64,000 nt of DNA from assembly GCA_038087875.1 (NCBI GenBank), contig CM075990.1, positions 12,278,001 to 12,342,000 of the forward strand. The letters are read 5' to 3'. The notes beneath the pieces are model-generated. The model was not told the origin of the DNA. It worked only from the letters and a program-made list of their open reading frames with translations, and made no database searches. Below are positions 9,197 through 59,325 of the stretch, piece by piece (the stretch's first letter is position 1; every line of letters starts with the position of its first letter). The DNA is from Malacoraja senta. Its lineage: Eukaryota. Made by a program: the position numbers and the translations under genes.

Positions 9197-9619
9197 TGAC
9201 ATGTGTCACAACTGTTTTCAGCGTTAGGATCAGAAAGATGGATCTGAACCTTCATTGAAGCTTACTATCTCCTCACAATCGAACTACGTCCCAACAGCTG
9301 AGCACCAAATCAATGAGAGCCTGGTCTCGTCACAGGTCATAGGTTGCCTTAATAGCATTCCACATTGCTTTTGCATTAAGCAGCAAGCTGAGAGCTACGC
9401 ATTTATATCACCAGCTGTTGGGTAATGAGTTAACTGTGTTTGGATGATGGAGTACATGTTGAACACTTGGAAAAATGATAGACAGCTACAGTGCTATTAT
9501 CAATAGTGTTTATTATCAGCGCTTGCTGTCTTTGTTACGCAAACTAAGTTGCGGAACGCTAGACATGCTGTTAATGATCCTTTTCAATGTAAAATGTTAT
9601 ACAGGAAGTAAATTCAGAA

Positions 9620-11245
9620 TTATGGATGCATTGGTGATCACTTTCCAATCATTTTCCAATGTTCTATAGATTCTGGATCAGTTCCTGTGGATTGGAGGAT
9701 AGCTAATGTTATCCCACTTTTTAAGAAAGGAGGGAGAGAGAAAACTGGGAATTATAGACCAGTTAGCCTGACATCACTGGTGGGGAAGATGCTGGAGTCA
9801 ATTATTAAAGATGGAACAGCGACACATTTGGATAGCAGTAGCAGGATCGGTCCAAGTCAGCATGGATTTACGAAGGGGAAATCTTGCTTGACTAATCTTC
9901 TGGAATTTTTTGAGGATGTAAGAAGTAAAATGGATAAAGGAGAGCAAGTGGATGTAGTGTACCTGGACTTTCAGAAAGCCTTTGATAAGGTTCCACATAG
10001 AAGATTAGTGGGCAAGATTAGAGCACATGGTATTGGGGGTAGGGTATTGACATAGATTGAAAATTGGTTGGCAGACAGGAAACAAAGAGTAGGAATTACC
10101 GGGTACCTTTCCGAATGGCAGGCAGTGACAAGTGGGGTGCTGGGACTGCAGCTATTTTCAATATATATTAATGATTTAGATGAAGGAATTAAAAGTAACA
10201 TTAGCAAATTTGCAGATGACACAAAGCTCGGTGGCAGTGTGAACTGTGAAGAGGAGGCTATGAGGATGCAGGGTGACTTGGATAGGTTGGGTAAGTAGGC
10301 AGATGCATAGCAGATGCAGTATAATGTGGATAAATGTGAGGTTGTCCACTTTGGTGGTAAGAACAAGAAGGCAGATTATTATCTGAATGGTGTCAGATTA
10401 GGAAAAGAGGAGGTGCAACGAGACCTGGGTGTCCTTGTACATCTGTCACTGAAAGTAAGCATGCAGGTACAGCAGGCAGTGAAGAAAGCTAAAGGCATGT
10501 TGGCCTTCATAACGCGAGGATTTGAGTTTTGGAGCAAAGAGGTCCTTCTGCAGTTGTACAGGGCCCTGGTGAGACCACACCTGGAGTATTGTGTGCAGTT
10601 TTGGTCTCCTAATTTGAGGAAGGACATTCTTGCTATTGAGGGAGTGCAGCTTAGGTTCACGAGGTTAAATCCCAGGATGGCGGGACTGTCATATGTTGAA
10701 AGAATGAAGCGACTGGGCCTGAATTCACTGGAATTTCGAAGGATGAGAGGGGATCTTATAGAAACATATAAAATTATTAAGGGATTGGATAAGCTCGATG
10801 CAGGAAACATGTTTCCGATGTTGGGGGAGTTCAGACCCAGGGGCCACAGTTTGAGAATAAGGGGTCGGCCATTTAGAACTGAGATGAGGAAAAATGTTTT
10901 CACCCAGAGAATTGTGAAATTGTGGAATTCTCTGCCTCAGAAAGTAGTGGAGGCCGATTCACTGGATGCATTCAAAAGAGAGTTAGATAGAGCTCTTAGG
11001 GCTAGCGGAATAAAGGGATATGGGGAGAAGGCAGGAACGGGGTACTGATTGTGTATGATGTTATATGAAATAGGAGCAAGAGAATGTCTTATGGCTGGAT
11101 TTTAAATCTGGTCCACCATAAAGAAGGCAGGAATGGGGTACTGATTGTGGACGATCGGCCATGATCACATTGAATGGCGGTGCTGGCTCGAAGGGCCAAA
11201 TGGCCTACTCCTGCACCTATTGTCTAGACTCTATTGTCTATAATT
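9620..11245 (+). mobile_element. CR1 LINE, 5'-truncated and disrupted ORF2 (reverse transcriptase) plus 3' tail
   Basis: DWRIANVIPLFKKG, NYRPVSLTS, YLDFQKAFDKVPH, KFADDTKL, LVRPHLEYCVQFWSP; several stops; tail ending in TATTGTC repeats. Confidence 0.95.
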
Positions 11246-25440: not shown

Positions 25441-25852
25441 ATGATGAGGAATGGGAGTGATAAATGGGATTAGTCAGGATAATGTGACCCCCTTTATGGT
25501 TGTCCAGCTTGCTCGAAGTACCAGGCTACACAGATGAATTAAATCTTCCTCTTCTGCAGTTCCCAAAGTAGTTACTGATATACCTCATGAATTAGAAACT
25601 TCTGTCTTTAGTTGTTTTTGTTTGACATTCCCAGAGCTCATTTTAGCTTTCAGCGTGTACATCGTGGTTTATGAACCACAGAATCCTAGCCGTCCTGTGA
25701 TGGTATAACTGTGGTGCCATTGAGTCTGATGAAGGGTCTCGACCCAAAACATCACCTATCCATGTTTTCCAGAGATGCTGCCTGACCCGCCGAGTTACTC
25801 CAGTTACTGTAATAGAGGTGGCCCAATCTGGATTGGGATTAGATTGTTCACC

Positions 25853-28277
25853 ACATTCACTCAACATAATGCACTCACACAAATCTGAAGAACAAGAATT
25901 ATCAATTATTTCGCTGGATGCTGAAAAAGCATTTGACCAAGTAGAATGGAATTATATGGATAAAGTATTACAAAAATTCCAACTGGGAGAGAATTTTATT
26001 CTATGGATTAAATTATTATATAATAAACCTACAGCTAGAATACTAACTAATAACATATTATCCTCGAAATTCCAACTATCAAGGGGAAATAGACAAGGAT
26101 GCTCATTATCACCACAGTTGTTTGCTCTTATTATTGAACCGCTAGCAGAAAAAATTAGAATACATCCTGATATCCATGGGTATAATACTAAAGATTCAAA
26201 TAATAAAATATCTTTATACGCGGATGATATATTACTGTACATTACAAAACCTCAAATCACTATACCAAATATATTAAATTTAATTGAAGACTTTGGATCT
26301 TTTTCTGGATACAGAATAAATTGGAATAAAAGTGAAATTATGTCAATAAAACCGAAAGATTCAACACATCTTTTAAAATTCCCTTTTAAAATAGCTACAG
26401 AAAAATTTAAATACTTGGGAATCGAAATTACTAGAACATATCAAGGTATGTTTAAAGCAAATTTTGATCCCCTACTCAATAAATTAAACACACTAATTAA
26501 ATTTTGGAAAACGCTCCCGATGTCTTTAATAGGCCGAATAAATGCAATAAAAATGATCTTTCTACCACAAATTTTATACCTATTTCAATCGATTCCTATA
26601 TACTTACCAAAGAAGTTTTTTTTTAAACTGGACTCAGATATCACTAATTTTATATGGGACTATAAATCACATAGAATACAAAAAACTCACTTGAATAAAC
26701 CTAAAGTATTAGGGGGTTTAGCACTACCTAATTTCATGCATTATTATTGGTCAGTAAATATTAAAAATATGATTCAACTGATGGATAACTCTGCCCAGCA
26801 AGTGGACTGGATTGTAATGGAGAGAGAGGATTGCTCCTCTGGAAACATTGGAGCGATCCTCCTCTCACCAATGGAACTGAATAACATAAATTATAATAAG
26901 AACCCAATTATACATAACACAATCTGAATTTGGAAACAAATAAAACAAAATTTAAAATTAAGAAATGTATCACTTTTATCTCCCATAGTTAATAATCCTT
27001 CGTTTAATCCCTCTATTATAGATAAAGCTTTTACACAATGGGATAGACTAGGAATTAAAACGCTTGGTGACTTGTATGAAACTGGAAAATTACTTTCATT
27101 TCAACAATTACAAATAAAATATAAACTCGGAAATATTTTAAATATTTTCAAATATGCGACTATTTGAAAAAATATACAAAAGATCATTATAATAGCCCAG
27201 CAGATGTATTGGATGAGGCAATGCAGATAAAAGCTGAATCAGCAAACTTAATATCATATTTGTATAATATTATCTTAAATGTAGAAATACCATCTACGGA
27301 GGGTATCAGAAGAGACTGGGAACAAGAATTAGCTATTAAAATTTCAAAGGAAAGGTGGAATGAACACTTATTAAACGTGCATAAATGTTCGATTAATGTA
27401 AGACACACTTTAATACAATTTAAAATTTTACATATATTATATTATTCCAAAACTAAATTCCATAAAATTTTCCCATATGTATCATCAAACTGTGATAAAT
27501 GTCAATCCCAAGAAGCTACCATAGCGCACTCATTTGTTTTCTGTACAAAAATTCAAAAATTTTGGATTGAAATTTTTGAAATCTTTATAAAATTATTTAA
27601 AATAAAACTGATATTCAAAGCAGAATGGATTATCTTCGGAATAACGGAAGATGGTCCAGAACTAAATGTGTTCCAAAAGAAACTAATAGACTATGGGTTA
27701 ATAACTGGACAAAAGCTAATCCTAACATTTTGGAAAAAGGCTCCAATACCAACTATAAACATGTGGATTTCAAATATGTTCGAAACATTACACCTAGAAG
27801 AGATAAGACTCCTCCTGGCAGGTAAACCAGATCACTTCCACCTGACGTGGTCTGCATTTATAGAATTATTACAAATATAGGGTGCAAAAGTACCTTAAAA
27901 AAAAACCTGAGGTCAGGTAAGGGGGGATGAAAGTTGGAGAGTTGGTATGTCCCATTTGCGTGATGCTTACAAAAACTATTTCTTTTTCTCTTTTCCCTCT
28001 TTCTCTTTCTTCTTCTTTTCTAGGGTCTATTTCTTAACTCTTTTTCTTTTGTTTTTAATTTCGTTCTTATAGGGTCTTCGTTCTTTCTTGTCGTCACGTT
28101 TTTTACACTTTCACCTTTTCCTTCACTTTCTTCTTTCTCTCAATCTCATCCTTTCCCTTTACTAGTGTAAAAAACAAACGGAGTACATTAATTGTAAGAA
28201 GATATATGTGACGAGTACTAATGTATGTGGTTGTAATGTAATGTACTTCTAATAAATAATTTAAAAAAATTAAAAAA
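25853..28277 (+). mobile_element. L1-clade LINE, 5'-truncated ORF2 (RT plus C-terminal zinc knuckle), 3' UTR and A-tail
   Basis: SLDAEKAFD, RGNRQGCSLSP.LF, SLYADDILLY, CDKC..EATIAH.F..C; pyrimidine-rich UTR; AATAAA at 28251 then A-rich tail; 12-bp TSD AGATTGTTCACC at 25841-25852 and 28278-28289; internal TGA at 26925 and a later frameshift. Confidence 0.95.
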
Positions 28278-29885: not shown

Positions 29886-30117
29886 CTTAGGAAGACAGCT
29901 CTCTAGTTGTTGGTAGGATGGTTCAGCTATCTGATAACAATGGGGTGAATTCACATGACATGGTTTATTTATCGTGACAAGTTGGTCATGGACCACATGG
30001 GGATGCTGTCAGGGTGCATGTGAGGTGACACTGGCAATCTCTGTCTTGTCACGTCAGCTCAGTCCTGGTCTTGAAGGCGGAGGCACAATAATCTCAGGCA
30101 TTGCGCCTGAGATTATT

Positions 30118-31107
30118 TGTTTGTTTGTCATGTACATCAATGATCTGGATGATGGTGTGGAAAATTGGATTAGTAAGTATGCAGATGATACTAAGATAGG
30201 TGGTGTTGTGGATAATGAAGTAGATTTTCAAAGTCTACAGAGAGATTTAGGCCATTTGGAAGAGTGGGCTGAAAGATGGCAGATGGAGTTTAATGCTGAT
30301 AAATGTGAGGTGCTACATCTCGGCAGGACAAATCAAAATAGGACGTACATGGTAAATGGTAGCGAATTGAGGAATGCAGTTGAACAGAGGGATCTAGGAA
30401 TAACTGTAATAGTTCCCTGAAGGTGGAATCTCATGTAGATAGGGTGGTAAAGAAAGCTTTTGGTGTGCTGGCCTTTATAAATCAGAGCATTGAATATAGA
30501 AGTTGGGATGTAATGTTAAGATTATACAAGGCATTGGTGAGGCCAATTCTGGAGTATGCAGTACAATTTTGGTCGCCTAATTATAGGAAGGATGTCAACA
30601 AAATAGAGAGAGTACAGAGGAGATTTACTAGAATGTTGCCTGGGTTTCAGCAACTAAGTTACAGAGAAAGGTTGAACAAGTTAGGTCTTTATTCTTTGGA
30701 GCGCAGAAGGTTAAGGGGGGACTTGATAGAGGTCTTTAAAATGATGAGCGGGTTAGACAGAGTTGACGTGGATAAGCTGAGAGTAGGGAAGATTCAAACA
30801 AGGGGACATGACTTGAGAATTAAGGGACAGAAGTTTAGGGGTAACATTAGGGGGAACTTCTTTACTCAGAGAGTGGTAGCTGTGTGGAATGAGCTTCCAG
30901 TGGAAGTGGTGGAGGCAGGTTCGATTTTATCCTTTAAAAATAGATTGGATGGGTATATGGACGGGAAAGGAATGGAGGGTTATGGTCTGAGTGCAGGTAG
31001 ATGGGACTAGGGGGAAGTAAGAAGAAAGAAGGGGAAAAAAAAAAAAGTGTTCGGCACGGACTTGAAGGGCCGAGATGGCCTGTTTCCGTGCTGTAATGGT
31101 TATATGG
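30118..31107 (+). mobile_element. CR1 LINE (second subfamily), 5'-truncated ORF2
   Basis: YINDLDDG, SKYADDTKIGG, WQMEFNADKC, LVRPILEYAVQFWSP, LERRRLRGDLIE; tail GGCCTGTTTCCGTGCTGTA. Confidence 0.95.
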
Positions 31108-32361: not shown

Positions 32362-32426
32362 GCAACAGATAATGACATTGGAAGCTATGGAGACATCCTT
32401 TATTTCTTCAGTGACGACTCTGACAG
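32362..32426 (+). CDS. CDH23: Cadherin-23 coding exon (EC5; about human exon 15), 65 bp
   Basis: Polypyrimidine tract plus AG at 32360-32361, GT at 32427. Encodes ATDNDIGSYGDILYFFSDDSD(R), versus recalled human CDH23 ATDNDAGTFGEVSYFFSDDPDR; contains the AxDxD Ca2+ motif. Confidence 0.93.
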
Positions 32427-34574
32427 GTAGGACTCAGCTCTTGGTAGTAAGCATTTCTGAACGTTTACCTATATACACTGATGGTTATGAACTATTTGCT
32501 GAAAGGTGTGATGCATGAAGTCTGGTAAATCTCCCGCAAAGCTTCAAAACATCTGCTGAGGAAATGTTGCGTTTGGATTTAATCGACGGGATTTGGTATC
32601 TCATCCCCTCCTGGTCAAGACGTGGTGAATATTTGTAACACCTGACCCATATGTGGTCGTCAGCCTCCCGCCTATATGCAACTCCTTTCTCCAGCTTTCA
32701 ACAGATTCTTACTGAGCTTCTGAGAAGACCTGTGGCTCTCAATCTGCCAGAACATTGAGGCAAGATTCATAGAATCATACGGTGCGGGAACAGGCCCTTA
32801 GGCCCAACTTGCCCATACCGACCGACATGTCCCAGCTACACTTGCCAGCATTTGGCCCACATCCCTCTAAACCCATCCCATCCATGTATCTGTCTAATTG
32901 CTTCTTAAACTTTGCAATAGTTCCTCCCTCAGCTGCCAAAGAGATTATGATTTTAGTCAGAGAGACATTGAGCGATGGAGCTCTACAGCATGGAAACTGG
33001 CCCATCAACCCAACCACGTTGAAATTCTATTGTGGTTATTAACAATTCATTTTTGTTTGCTATATATCATCTATGTGTACTGTGTTTACAGGCCTGTTAT
33101 GCTGCTGCAAGTAGGAATTTCATTGTTCCGTTGCCAGTGTATATGATTTATTAAACACTCTTGACACCCCTCGCACCCTCCGATCCATATATCTGTCCAA
33201 AAGTCTTTTGATAGTCATAATTTTATCAGCTTCCCCAGCTTCTACTGGTGGCTCATACAGACTGCCCTCAGAGTGAAAACATTGTTGCCGAGGTCCCTAT
33301 TAAATCTCTCCTCTTTTACCTTGAGCCCACAGCCTCCAGTTTTAAAACCCTCCACCCTGCGAAAAAATGACTCTGAACGTTCACTGTTCTGTCTAAGGCA
33401 GTCGGCAGTCGGCAGGTTTATGCAAGTCCTAAAGAGATCATATTGTTGGAAATTGTACCCTAAGGTTGTGCCATCAGTGCCTCTAGATTGCCTGTTAGGG
33501 AGAATACAAAAGATCTGGTACATTCTTGGAAGAAGAGCAAGATGTTAGTTATCCTGGGGTTCTGGCCAACTGCTGCAAGAAATGATCGTCCCTATGTTGT
33601 TGCTCCATGCAAATGGACTGCCAGGTTTGTTTCTGTAAGCAAGAGTGACTCCATTTTGAGTAGTGATTCTTTGTTAATCAAAGTGCTTTAAAAGATCCTG
33701 AGAAAGTAATAAAGTATTACTGTATATAAATACATGTACTTCTTCTAATGAACGAAGAGCATTTATTAAATGGTCTTTGAGGGCGATTTCTTTTCTTTTT
33801 CTTTTCATCTATTTTGTGTCCTGTAGAGGGTTTTGTATGTTTGTTTTTAGTGAGACATCTTCAACCAAACTTCAATACAAGTGGCATCTGAAATTATTTT
33901 AAAACAGGCAATATAAAAGCATCCCCAGTTGCTAAAATGCAAAAAACAAAATCAATTTAATTTCACTTTGAAATGAGTACTTAAGAAAAAGGCACTTGGG
34001 CTTTTGATTCCTTGGATATGGAAGAAGGATATTGCAGGGTATAGTGTCTCCAGCTGTACGATCCTGCTATCACAGAGTTGTTTTGTTCCCATTGAAACCA
34101 GACGCAACGGCAGGCCGAGTAGAGATGCTGTCAGTGTGGAGTTTGCACGGTCTCCCTGCGACTCTGTGGCTTTTCCCCTGGTGCTCCAGTTTCCTCCCAC
34201 ATCACGAAAACCTGGATTGACGGGTTAATTGACAACGGTGGTTGACCCTAGTGTGATGATAAGTCGAAGGATCTGAGGAGAAGTTGATGGGAATGTGTGT
34301 GGTGTTCCATGGCTACCTCAGCAATGGAACACTATTGCCTACATCTTCCACTAGCATGGACTTGTTTTTCTAATTACGTTTTTCATGAGTCTTGTTTTTT
34401 CGCAGTCTTTTTCTATTAAATGTCTGGTATAATATACGTCTTGGTGTGTTGTCTAAGTTGATGTGCCCGTGATGCTGCTGCAAGGAAGATTTCCATTGAC
34501 CTCACCGTAATTGTGCACATGGCAATAAGCTCACATAGACTTGAGTAAAATAGGCAATTAATGCAACAATGAAT

Positions 34575-34995
34575 GCTCACTAGAATTTAGGAGATTGAGA
34601 GGGGATCTTATAGAAACGTACAAAATTCTTATGGGGTTGGACTGGCTAGATGCAGGAAGATTGTTCCCGATGTTGGGGAAGTCCAGGACAAGGGGTCACA
34701 GCTTAAGGATAAGGGGGAAATCCTTTAAGACCGAGATGAGGAAAAACATTTTCACACAGAGAGTGGTGAATCTCTGGAACTCCCTGCCACAGAGGGTAGT
34801 TGAGGCCAGTTCATTGGCTATATTTAAGAGGGAGTTAGATGTGGCCCTTGTGGCTAAGGGGATCAGGGGGTATGGAGAGAAGGCAGGTACGGGATACTGA
34901 GTTGGATGATCAGCCATGATCATATTGAATGGTGGTCCAGGCTCGAAGGGCCGAATGGCCTACTCCTGCACCTTTTTTCTATGTATCTATGTATG
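34575..34995 (+). mobile_element. CR1 3' fragment (similar copies at 46880-47100 and 48565-48810 on +; 60303-60550, 61665-61843 and 63660-63950 on -)
   Basis: RGDLIETYKI...FTQRVVNLWNSLP...GYGEKAGTGY* followed by the tail and (TTTCTATG)n. Confidence 0.9.
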
Positions 34996-36074
34996 CTGTG
35001 GGCTCCATGAGTAGATGAGCTTGTATTTCTATGACTCCAGATACCGGGCAGTATCCAGTGAGTGTTCCCAGTGGAAATGGGTGGGAGCCACATCAATATA
35101 GCCTGCTGCCACTATCCAACTACACATGGGAATGCGTAGGAAAGAAGTGCAGATAATAATAATAATAATAATACATTTGTATAGCACATTTAAAAACAAC
35201 TCATGTTGACCAACGTGCTTTACATCAGTGCAGGTACTAATTTGATACATACAACGGTAGACAGACCTAACAATACATACATAAACTGTTTACAGCGCTC
35301 CCTCAGAGGGGCTCAAAAACGTTAGGGAGTAGAAATAGGTTTTGAGTCGTGACTTAAAGGAGTCGATGGTGGGGGTAGTTCTGATGAGGAGCGGGATGCT
35401 GGTTTACACCAATGACAGACCCATAGAAGGAATGGGTGACGTTTCGGATCGAGACCCTTCTTCAGACTGGTGCACACAAGGGTAAACCTTTGACAGCAGC
35501 TTCCATTCATGGAACAATAGCCAGGACCTTACCCCAGGTGCTGACATTGCCAGGGGAGAGATATTCAACAGTGCGAGTAGCAAGACCCAAACGTTGAGCA
35601 ACTGTCAACAATCGAGAATTTATTTCCAATTATAAAATTTGGCGAAACCTCTACACATGGGTGATTCAAGAAAAATATGAGGTCAAAATATCAAATAGAA
35701 TTAGAATGGACAGTTCCTTCTTAAATATTGTGCATACAAATTCTTGTTTTGCAAATTGTAATATGTGTCATCGTTTATACATTTCTAGCATTGTGCAAAT
35801 GTACTTCCTTGTTTCTTCAGCACTTCACATAGACTGGGGTCCGGTAATATAATAAAGCACGTCAATTATAGTGTAATGTGGAAATAATGAAAAAAACAAT
35901 TTTATTCAAATCCACATTTGCGCAGAACACATTGTGAAACACATAGTTAATTTATTTTACTGTGAGGATATTGCACACGCATCACATTTCATTAGATTGT
36001 TGCCCATATATTTAAATATGTTGTGCTGTAAAGTATTGTCATTGATCTTACTCCACGGCTGTCTTCTAACATTT

Positions 36075-42485: not shown

Positions 42486-43449
42486 GCATCTATGGAGCGA
42501 AGGAAATAGGCAAAGTTTCGGGCCAAAACCCTTCTTCAGACTGATGTGGGGGGGGGGGGGCGGGAAGAAGAAAGGAAGAGGAGGAGCCAGAGGGCTGAGG
42601 GAGAGCTGAGAAGGGGAGGAGACAGCAAGGGCTACCGGAAATTGGAGAAGTCAATGTTCAGGCCACTGGGATGTAAACTGCCCAAGCGGAATATGAGGTG
42701 CTGCTCCTCCAATTTCCGGTGGTGCTCACTCTGGCCATGGAGGGAGGCCCAGGACAGAAAGGTCGGATTCGTAATGGGAGGGGGAGTTGAAGTGCTGAGC
42801 CACCGGGAGATCAGGTTGGTTAATGCGGACCGAGCGGAGGTGTTCGGCGAAATGATCGCCAAGCCTACGCTTGGTCTCACCGATGTAGATCAGCTGACAT
42901 CTAGAGCAGCGGATGCAATAGGTGAGGTTGGAGGAGGTGCTGGTGAACCTCTGCCGCACTTGGAACGACTGCTTGGGTCCTTGAATGGAGTCGAGGGGGG
43001 AAGTAAAGCGACAAGTGTTGCATCTCTTGTGGTTGCAAGGGAAAGTGCCCGGGGAGGGGGTGGTGCGGGTGGGAAGGGAAGAATTGACCAGGGAGTTACG
43101 GAGGGAGTGGTCTTTGCGGAAAGCAGACAGGGGGGGGTGGAGATGGGAAGATGTGGCGAGTGGTGGGGTCACGTTGGAGGTGGCGAAAATGACGGAGGAC
43201 TATTTGTTGTATGTGACGGCTAGTGGGTTGGAAGGTGAGGACTAGGGGGACTCTGCCCTTGTCCCGAGTAGGGGGATGGGGAGAGAGAGCAGTGTTGCGG
43301 GGTATTGAAGAGACCCTGGTGAGAGCCTCATCTATGGTAGGGGAGGGGAACCCCCGTTCCCTGAAGAATGAGGAAATTTTCTCCAGTTAGTTTCTCCAGC
43401 ATTTTTGTCTACCTTCGATTTTCCAGCATCTGCAGTTCCTTCTTGAACA
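42486..43449 (-). mobile_element. Penelope-like retroelement fragment (GIY-YIG, frameshifted) with an inverted terminal-repeat piece at its 5' side (43381-43449)
   Basis: CNHKRCNTC, CIRCSRCQLIYIGETKRRLGDHFAEH, KLEEQHLIFRLGSLHPSGLNIDFSNF; close relative of 617-1560. Confidence 0.9.
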
Positions 43450-44073: not shown

Positions 44074-44309
44074 GTTTGCAATCGACAAGGATACTGGCAA
44101 GATAACGCTGATCCGGGTCTGGACTTTGAGACCACGCGGCGGTACACGTTAACGCTGATAGCGAGAGATGGCGGGGGAGAGGAGAGCACGGGCCGGCTGC
44201 GAATCAACGTGTTGGATGTCAACGACAACGTCCCCACCTTCCAGAAGGAGACCTACCTGGGAACGATTCGAGAGAACGAGGCGGCCCAGTGCAGGTGGTC
44301 CGTGTGCGG
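44074..44309 (+). CDS. CDH23: Cadherin-23 coding exon (EC5/EC6 junction; about human exon 16), carries two apparent -1 frameshifts
   Basis: AG at 44072-44073, GTGAGT at 44310. Reads (R)FAIDKDTGKITLIR / LDFETTRRYTLTLIARDGGGEESTGRLRINVLDVNDNVPTFQKETYLGTIRENEAA / VQVVRVR across three frames. Recalled human: RFSLDKDTGLIMLIARLDYELIQRFTLTIIARDGGGEETTGRVRINVLDVNDNVPTFQKDAYVGALRENEPSVTQLVRLR. LDxE, AxDGG and DxNDN cadherin motifs present. Confidence 0.93.
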
Positions 44310-51211: not shown

Positions 51212-51317
51212 GTGATCGATGATGACTCCCCACCAAATAACCAGATCACCTACAGCATCTTCAACGCCTCCATTCTCAGCAACTCCTTTGATATCGGGGT
51301 GTCAGAAGGCTATGGAG
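51212..51317 (+). CDS. CDH23: Cadherin-23 coding exon (EC6; about human exon 17), 106 bp
   Basis: Pyrimidine tract plus CAG ending 51211, GTAAG at 51318. Encodes VIDDDSPPNNQITYSIFNASILSNSFDIGVSEGYG, versus recalled human ATDEDSPPNNQITYSIVSASAFGSYFDISLYEGYG. Confidence 0.93.
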
Positions 51318-59197: not shown

Positions 59198-59325
59198 TTG
59201 TGATCGTCACCAGGCCCATTGACTTTGAGCAGGTACCAGGAGGGTTCATCTACCTGACTGTCATGGCCAAAGATGCTGGGACCCCGTCTCTCCATAGTAC
59301 AGTACCTGTGATTGTCGAAGTCTTT
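59198..59325 (+). CDS. CDH23: Cadherin-23 coding exon (EC6; about human exon 18), 128 bp
   Basis: TTTCCAG acceptor ending 59197, GTAAGT at 59326; phase fits the previous exon. Encodes VVIVTRPIDFEQVPGGFIYLTVMAKDAGTPSLHSTVPVIVEVF, versus recalled human VISVSRPLDYEQISNGLIYLTVMAMDAGNPPLNSTVPVTIEVF. Confidence 0.93.

Follow-up and report, generated by a model that had tools for sequence, protein, structure and literature searches.

The CDH23 exon at positions 44074-44309 of the forward strand of the window (the whole 64-kb stretch of DNA analyzed here) lacks one base at each of two places, and on the basis of priors and indirect tests both missing bases are very probably local consensus errors of the assembly. 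The lesions most likely do not represent any real biological feature, and the CDH23 of the animal is likely ordinary and functional. The sequence-only reading had also considered an assembly error likelier than a real null allele, a preference supported by in-frame relatives, by the lack of decay and by intact splice sites and phases.

A tblastn search with eight CDH23 proteins recovered four exons of the gene in the 64-kb window, all on the forward strand: exon A (32362-32426, 65 nt, phase 0 to 2), which covers residues 482-503 in little-skate numbering and belongs to cadherin repeat EC5, exon B (44074-44309), which holds the end of EC5 and the start of EC6, exon C (51212-51317, 106 nt, phase 0 to 1) and exon D (59198-59325, 128 nt, phase 1 to 0), with A, C and D intact. 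The four are collinear with CDH23 proteins, have compatible phases provided that exon B is 238 nt long, and correspond to residues 482-660 of little-skate CDH23, i.e., to repeats EC5-EC6 as judged from linker positions, one linker being deduced. The same search gave no CDH23 exon in positions 1-32361 of the window, so that the intron preceding exon A spans at least 32 kb. Exon B is presumably the 'exon 16' of CDH23, a numbering for which no supporting paper was found in the literature search. Its middle piece shares about 70-84% identity with named CDH23 proteins vs. about 38-60% with FAT and protocadherins, and across 162 compared residues the window sequence is 96-97% identical to skate CDH23. 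In the tree it falls within the batoid clade (95/96), nearest to Leucoraja, Amblyraja and Rhinoraja, its placement inside the batoids not being settled by the tree. The best matches, which favor CDH23 over other cadherins, the exon phases and the tree thus agree with the earlier assignment to CDH23, and the proposed elasmobranch host is confirmed by the position in the batoid clade at 5-7 of 162 residues from skates. A PDB search was discarded as identity evidence, being uninformative: it ranked multi-repeat cadherins by their repeat number. By its name, the human variant c.1515-12G>A (PMC8741999) places an acceptor on the third base of codon 505, that is, at the same phase-2 Arg (dog numbering).

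Exon B is bounded by AG and GT and measures 236 nt, against the 238 nt expected from the CDH23 of sharks, rays and other vertebrates, and relative to these proteins each break leaves it one codon position short. Similarity to CDH23 is spread over three successive frames, with switches at 44115-44118 (+), where the codon for residue 518 lacks one base (break 1), and at 44285-44287 (+), where the C run in the codon for residue 575 is shorter by one base (break 2). The assembly reads GGG at 44115-44117 and CCC at 44285-44287, and the losses (net -2) do not cancel each other. Once exon 32362-32426 is spliced to exon B, the translation reads ...RFAIDKDTGKITLIRVWTLRPRGGTR*, and the shifted frame is closed by the TAA at 44150-44152 (+), which falls at roughly codon 529 of 3352 and 157 nt upstream of the 3′ junction of exon B. 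Frame-disrupting lesions, by which a pseudogene is recognized, are therefore present in the assembly sequence of the exon. The two single-base losses and the premature stop had been described beforehand, and splicing, translation and orthologue comparison bore them out; the TAA after splicing to exon A was reproduced, the length of 236 instead of 238 bp with shifts that do not cancel agrees with protein matches one codon position short per break, and the other three exons, reported as intact together with the splice sites, are all in frame with AG/GT kept and phases compatible.

The base missing at break 2 is readily named. Residue 575 is Pro in 16 of 17 cartilaginous fish species, including all 16 elasmobranchs compared, and one more C gives Pro, which fits a clear homopolymer slip with a C lost from the C run. 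Residue 518, at break 1, is Ser in seven of eight batoid species, Gly in Rhinoraja only, and Arg in the remaining nine species, which are sharks and a chimaera; Ser requires an A between the two Gs, and Gly one further G. By parsimony Ser, and hence a lost A, is likelier than Gly, and a homopolymer slip is improbable at break 1, since the batoids, mostly Ser at this residue, point to an isolated A between Gs as the lost base. The idea that both lesions lie in homopolymers consequently holds for break 2 and is unestablished for break 1. The repair offered for break 1, ATC CGG GGT CTG GAC (IRGLD), has a match among batoids in Rhinoraja alone, the other seven species having Ser, and a test that looks for GGGG is too narrow, as the lost base may be an A. 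A lost C at break 1, giving a shark-like Arg, was dropped because batoids have Ser or Gly. In a wider set, Arg or Lys occupies residue 518 in 155 of 180 vertebrate CDH23 models, yet all eight batoid species have Ser or Gly.

Relatives read through this region in frame. Among the 21 cartilaginous fish CDH23 models examined, 18 (17 species) include the region and three are without it; it is in frame in all 17 species, which comprise three skates and five other batoids and from which the true sister species is perhaps absent, and the lesions of exon B are common to none of them. Aligning the exons of other skates and rays had been proposed as a check, and the eight batoids compared gave an in-frame exon without exception. 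Residues were compared at 162 of 179 positions, leaving aside both break codons and 15 consecutive residues of exon B. Over these, the number of residues separating the window from its relatives is 5 for Leucoraja, 7 each for Amblyraja and Rhinoraja, 12 for Narcine, 13-16 for stingrays and mantas, 21-26 for sharks and 35 for Callorhinchus, and among the three skates themselves it is 2-9; no annotated CDH23 model was identical to the window sequence over the 162 residues. The skate models of Leucoraja erinacea (XP_055517733.1, P0243; 157/162 identical), Amblyraja radiata (XP_032868636.1, P0128; 155/162) and Rhinoraja longicauda (XP_078284733.1, P0126; 155/162) are collinear with the window over residues 482-660 without gaps, and all three are in frame through exon B, whereas the window lacks one base in codon 518 and another in codon 575. 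As it is identical to none of the three, the window probably comes from a different species. None of 180 regularly spaced CDH23 models has an X in exons A and B. A search for short open frames of independent skate assemblies across break 1 found none, its 10 candidates giving 2 catfish proteins, and an exact 24-base pattern of the region had 0 matches in metagenome contigs. In public runs (24 rows), 61 sampled window words were present at 0.75 in X1 and at 0.10-0.15 in 21 runs, with no RNA run listed as containing them, values not counted as evidence. Eight isoform models of Narcine bancroftii CDH23 (within P0262-P0270) have 38 inserted residues immediately ahead of exon A, within EC5, which reflect either an additional exon or faulty annotation.

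The same comparison bears on the hypothesis of a fixed change in the skate lineage, in which exon B is dead and either the cadherin is truly lost or in-frame skipping of exons A and B joins EC5 to EC6 in register and yields a protein one repeat shorter. We consider this hardly credible. Skipping has in its favor that exons A and B (303 nt, 101 codons) lie between phase-0 junctions and extend between successive DXD motifs, so that the frame is kept, but none of the 197 CDH23 models having both upstream and downstream anchors omits the pair; these models derive from 293 proteins fetched, are in many cases isoforms and were in part found by way of exon B. The retention of splice sites and near-skate sequence in exons A and B, the intact exon in three skates and five other batoids, and a literature search that at listing level gave no report of natural vertebrate CDH23 loss also stand against a fixed change. 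If it were true, a shortened or lost cadherin would have consequences for the ear, the lateral line and possibly electroreceptor mechanics. Exons A and B form one cadherin repeat in register and are thus a module that can be skipped in frame. Other routes around the lesions were discarded: skipping exon B alone shifts the frame, and rescue by cryptic sites, of which two AG and three GT would put the middle piece in frame, was rejected by inspection, the AGs lying in a purine-rich context with no pyrimidine tract and their use deleting most of the EC5 core.

Neither relaxed selection nor further lesions were found in the window CDH23, which has two private residue changes (H494L, P648S) in 162, three other exons intact and a short end branch, an outcome of low power for a very recent loss. 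Five relatives scored 0-3 private changes, the 63 compared residues of exon B contain none, and the terminal branch of the window CDH23 in the tree measures 0.013 vs. a median of 0.021. Repeats of the window show 8-10 mismatches per gap opening, and a dead gene should therefore acquire about six residue changes per indel under neutral decay; the few residue changes seen argue against an old pseudogene. The decay test is weak, as the probability that 1-4 later events include a second indel is, given the first lesion, P = 0.13-0.44; two random indels fall in the same exon with P = 0.31.

Absence of decay would also be expected of a recent null haplotype in the sequenced individual, probably heterozygous, with both deletions in cis, its transcript removed by nonsense-mediated decay and the other allele intact. 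Both lesions are indeed present in the sequence, the surroundings of exon B have no error signature, and the stop, 157 nt before the junction, lies past the 50-55 nt limit that holds for nonsense-mediated decay. Such a haplotype is nevertheless improbable, as two independent one-base deletions 170 nt apart would be needed on one short-lived recessive haplotype, in a window whose repeats accumulate substitutions at 8-10 times the rate of gap openings and in an exon with no private change among its compared residues. We attach an equally low probability to the window being a recently duplicated, dead part-copy of CDH23 with an intact copy elsewhere in the genome. A redundant copy would be free to accept frameshifts, but the four exons have kept splice sites and normal divergence over 27 kb, and the window contains no second copy of exons A-D.

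A consensus error, the preferred reading, raises the question of how accurate the assembly is around exon B. The repeat test covered 56 non-overlapping repeat copies (6281 positions), in which private changes came to 231 substitutions and 4 one-base deletions, alongside 8 insertions, and the eight copies at 41-48 kb had 0 deletions; window repeats thus show no excess of deletions. At the repeat deletion rate, the probability that two bases are lost within 238 nt is P = 0.010, and an error therefore requires a small, exon-sized bad patch. One-base losses make up 17 of 68 indels in the repeat copies of the window, some copies being counted twice. An excess of one-base deletions in young repeat copies was also considered, and vanished after overlapping copies and shared indels had been removed. 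A retroelement frame of 408 codons is unbroken in the window.

This frame, which contains an RVT_1 match, belongs to an AT-rich LINE remnant at 25701-27880 (+); after it comes a frame of 251 codons that matches zf-RVT weakly. Two other element copies, at 694-1562 and 42486-43348 (-), are 87% alike and have GIY-YIG matches, and we take them to be Penelope-like. Retroelement fragments, which we assume to be CR1-like, occur at 9612-11057 (with RVT_1 at 9612-10052), 29959-31010 and 34562-35007 along with several 3′ tails, some of which are 94-96% alike.

The composition of exon B sets it apart from the rest of the gene. It has 59% GC and 22 CpG vs. only 1-3 CpG in exons A, C and D, being the GC- and CpG-richest of the four, and its CpG observed/expected ratio of 1.1 vs. 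0.49 for the window makes it a CpG-island-like patch inside the gene body; only 1.3% of the 236-nt windows in the stretch match its CpG count. With 35% repeats, the 64-kb window contains no N, and from this feature alone we infer that the assembly was built from long reads. Frameshift-causing short indels were the most frequent error in CLR vertebrate assemblies, and the TLK1 frameshifts in the primary assembly of Anna's hummingbird came from an unpolished locus (PMC8081667); errors in a rice ONT assembly clustered where GC was extreme and methylation high (PMC7736813). Exon B resembles the two cases in its short indels, clustered at one locus of a conserved gene, its GC- and CpG-rich context and the lack of other decay (PMC8081667; PMC7736813), but these were proven by read mapping, whereas the losses in exon B are seen in the assembly sequence.

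A consensus error is accordingly favored because the region is in frame in 17 of 17 species and shows no signs of decay, because AG/GT and phases are kept in the four exons and 22 CpG in exon B, because each lesion is the loss of one base, a type that accounts for only 17 of 68 repeat indels, because exon B is GC- and CpG-rich as in published error clusters, and because loss of CDH23 is costly. The long-read consensus would have dropped a C from the C run at break 2 and, at break 1, either A or G, and the patch around exon B may have escaped polishing. The true exon would then be 238 nt long, and the segment of the tip-link cadherin that it encodes would run from the end of EC5 into the start of EC6.

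The CDH23 protein is laid out as an ectodomain followed by a membrane anchor and a tail. If the lesions were real, the transcript would be expected to decay and the allele to be null. Taken at face value, the premature stop would then deprive the protein of its membrane anchor, its tail and the greater part of its ectodomain, as truncating disease alleles do. Mechanotransduction in zebrafish hair cells requires CDH23, and Usher 1D mutations lie in the same gene (PMC13761534); the malformed dead zebrafish embryos that were genotyped all proved to be cdh23-/- (PMC10416109). The null alleles of human USH1D and of zebrafish cdh23 mutants are verified single lesions, found in patients or laboratory lines (PMC13761534; PMC10416109), unlike the two unverified single-base losses that share one exon of the present assembly.

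Annotation built on this assembly would yield a CDH23 that is truncated, split or in need of two corrections. If the losses are errors, the matter is one of curation only, and screens for gene loss in skates would get a false positive, with CDH23 scored as lost. If they were instead real and fixed, a wild vertebrate would carry a null or shortened tip-link cadherin, a condition for which the literature search, at listing level, gave no precedent, and which would test the dispensability of tip-link length, and of CDH23 itself, in elasmobranch hair cells.
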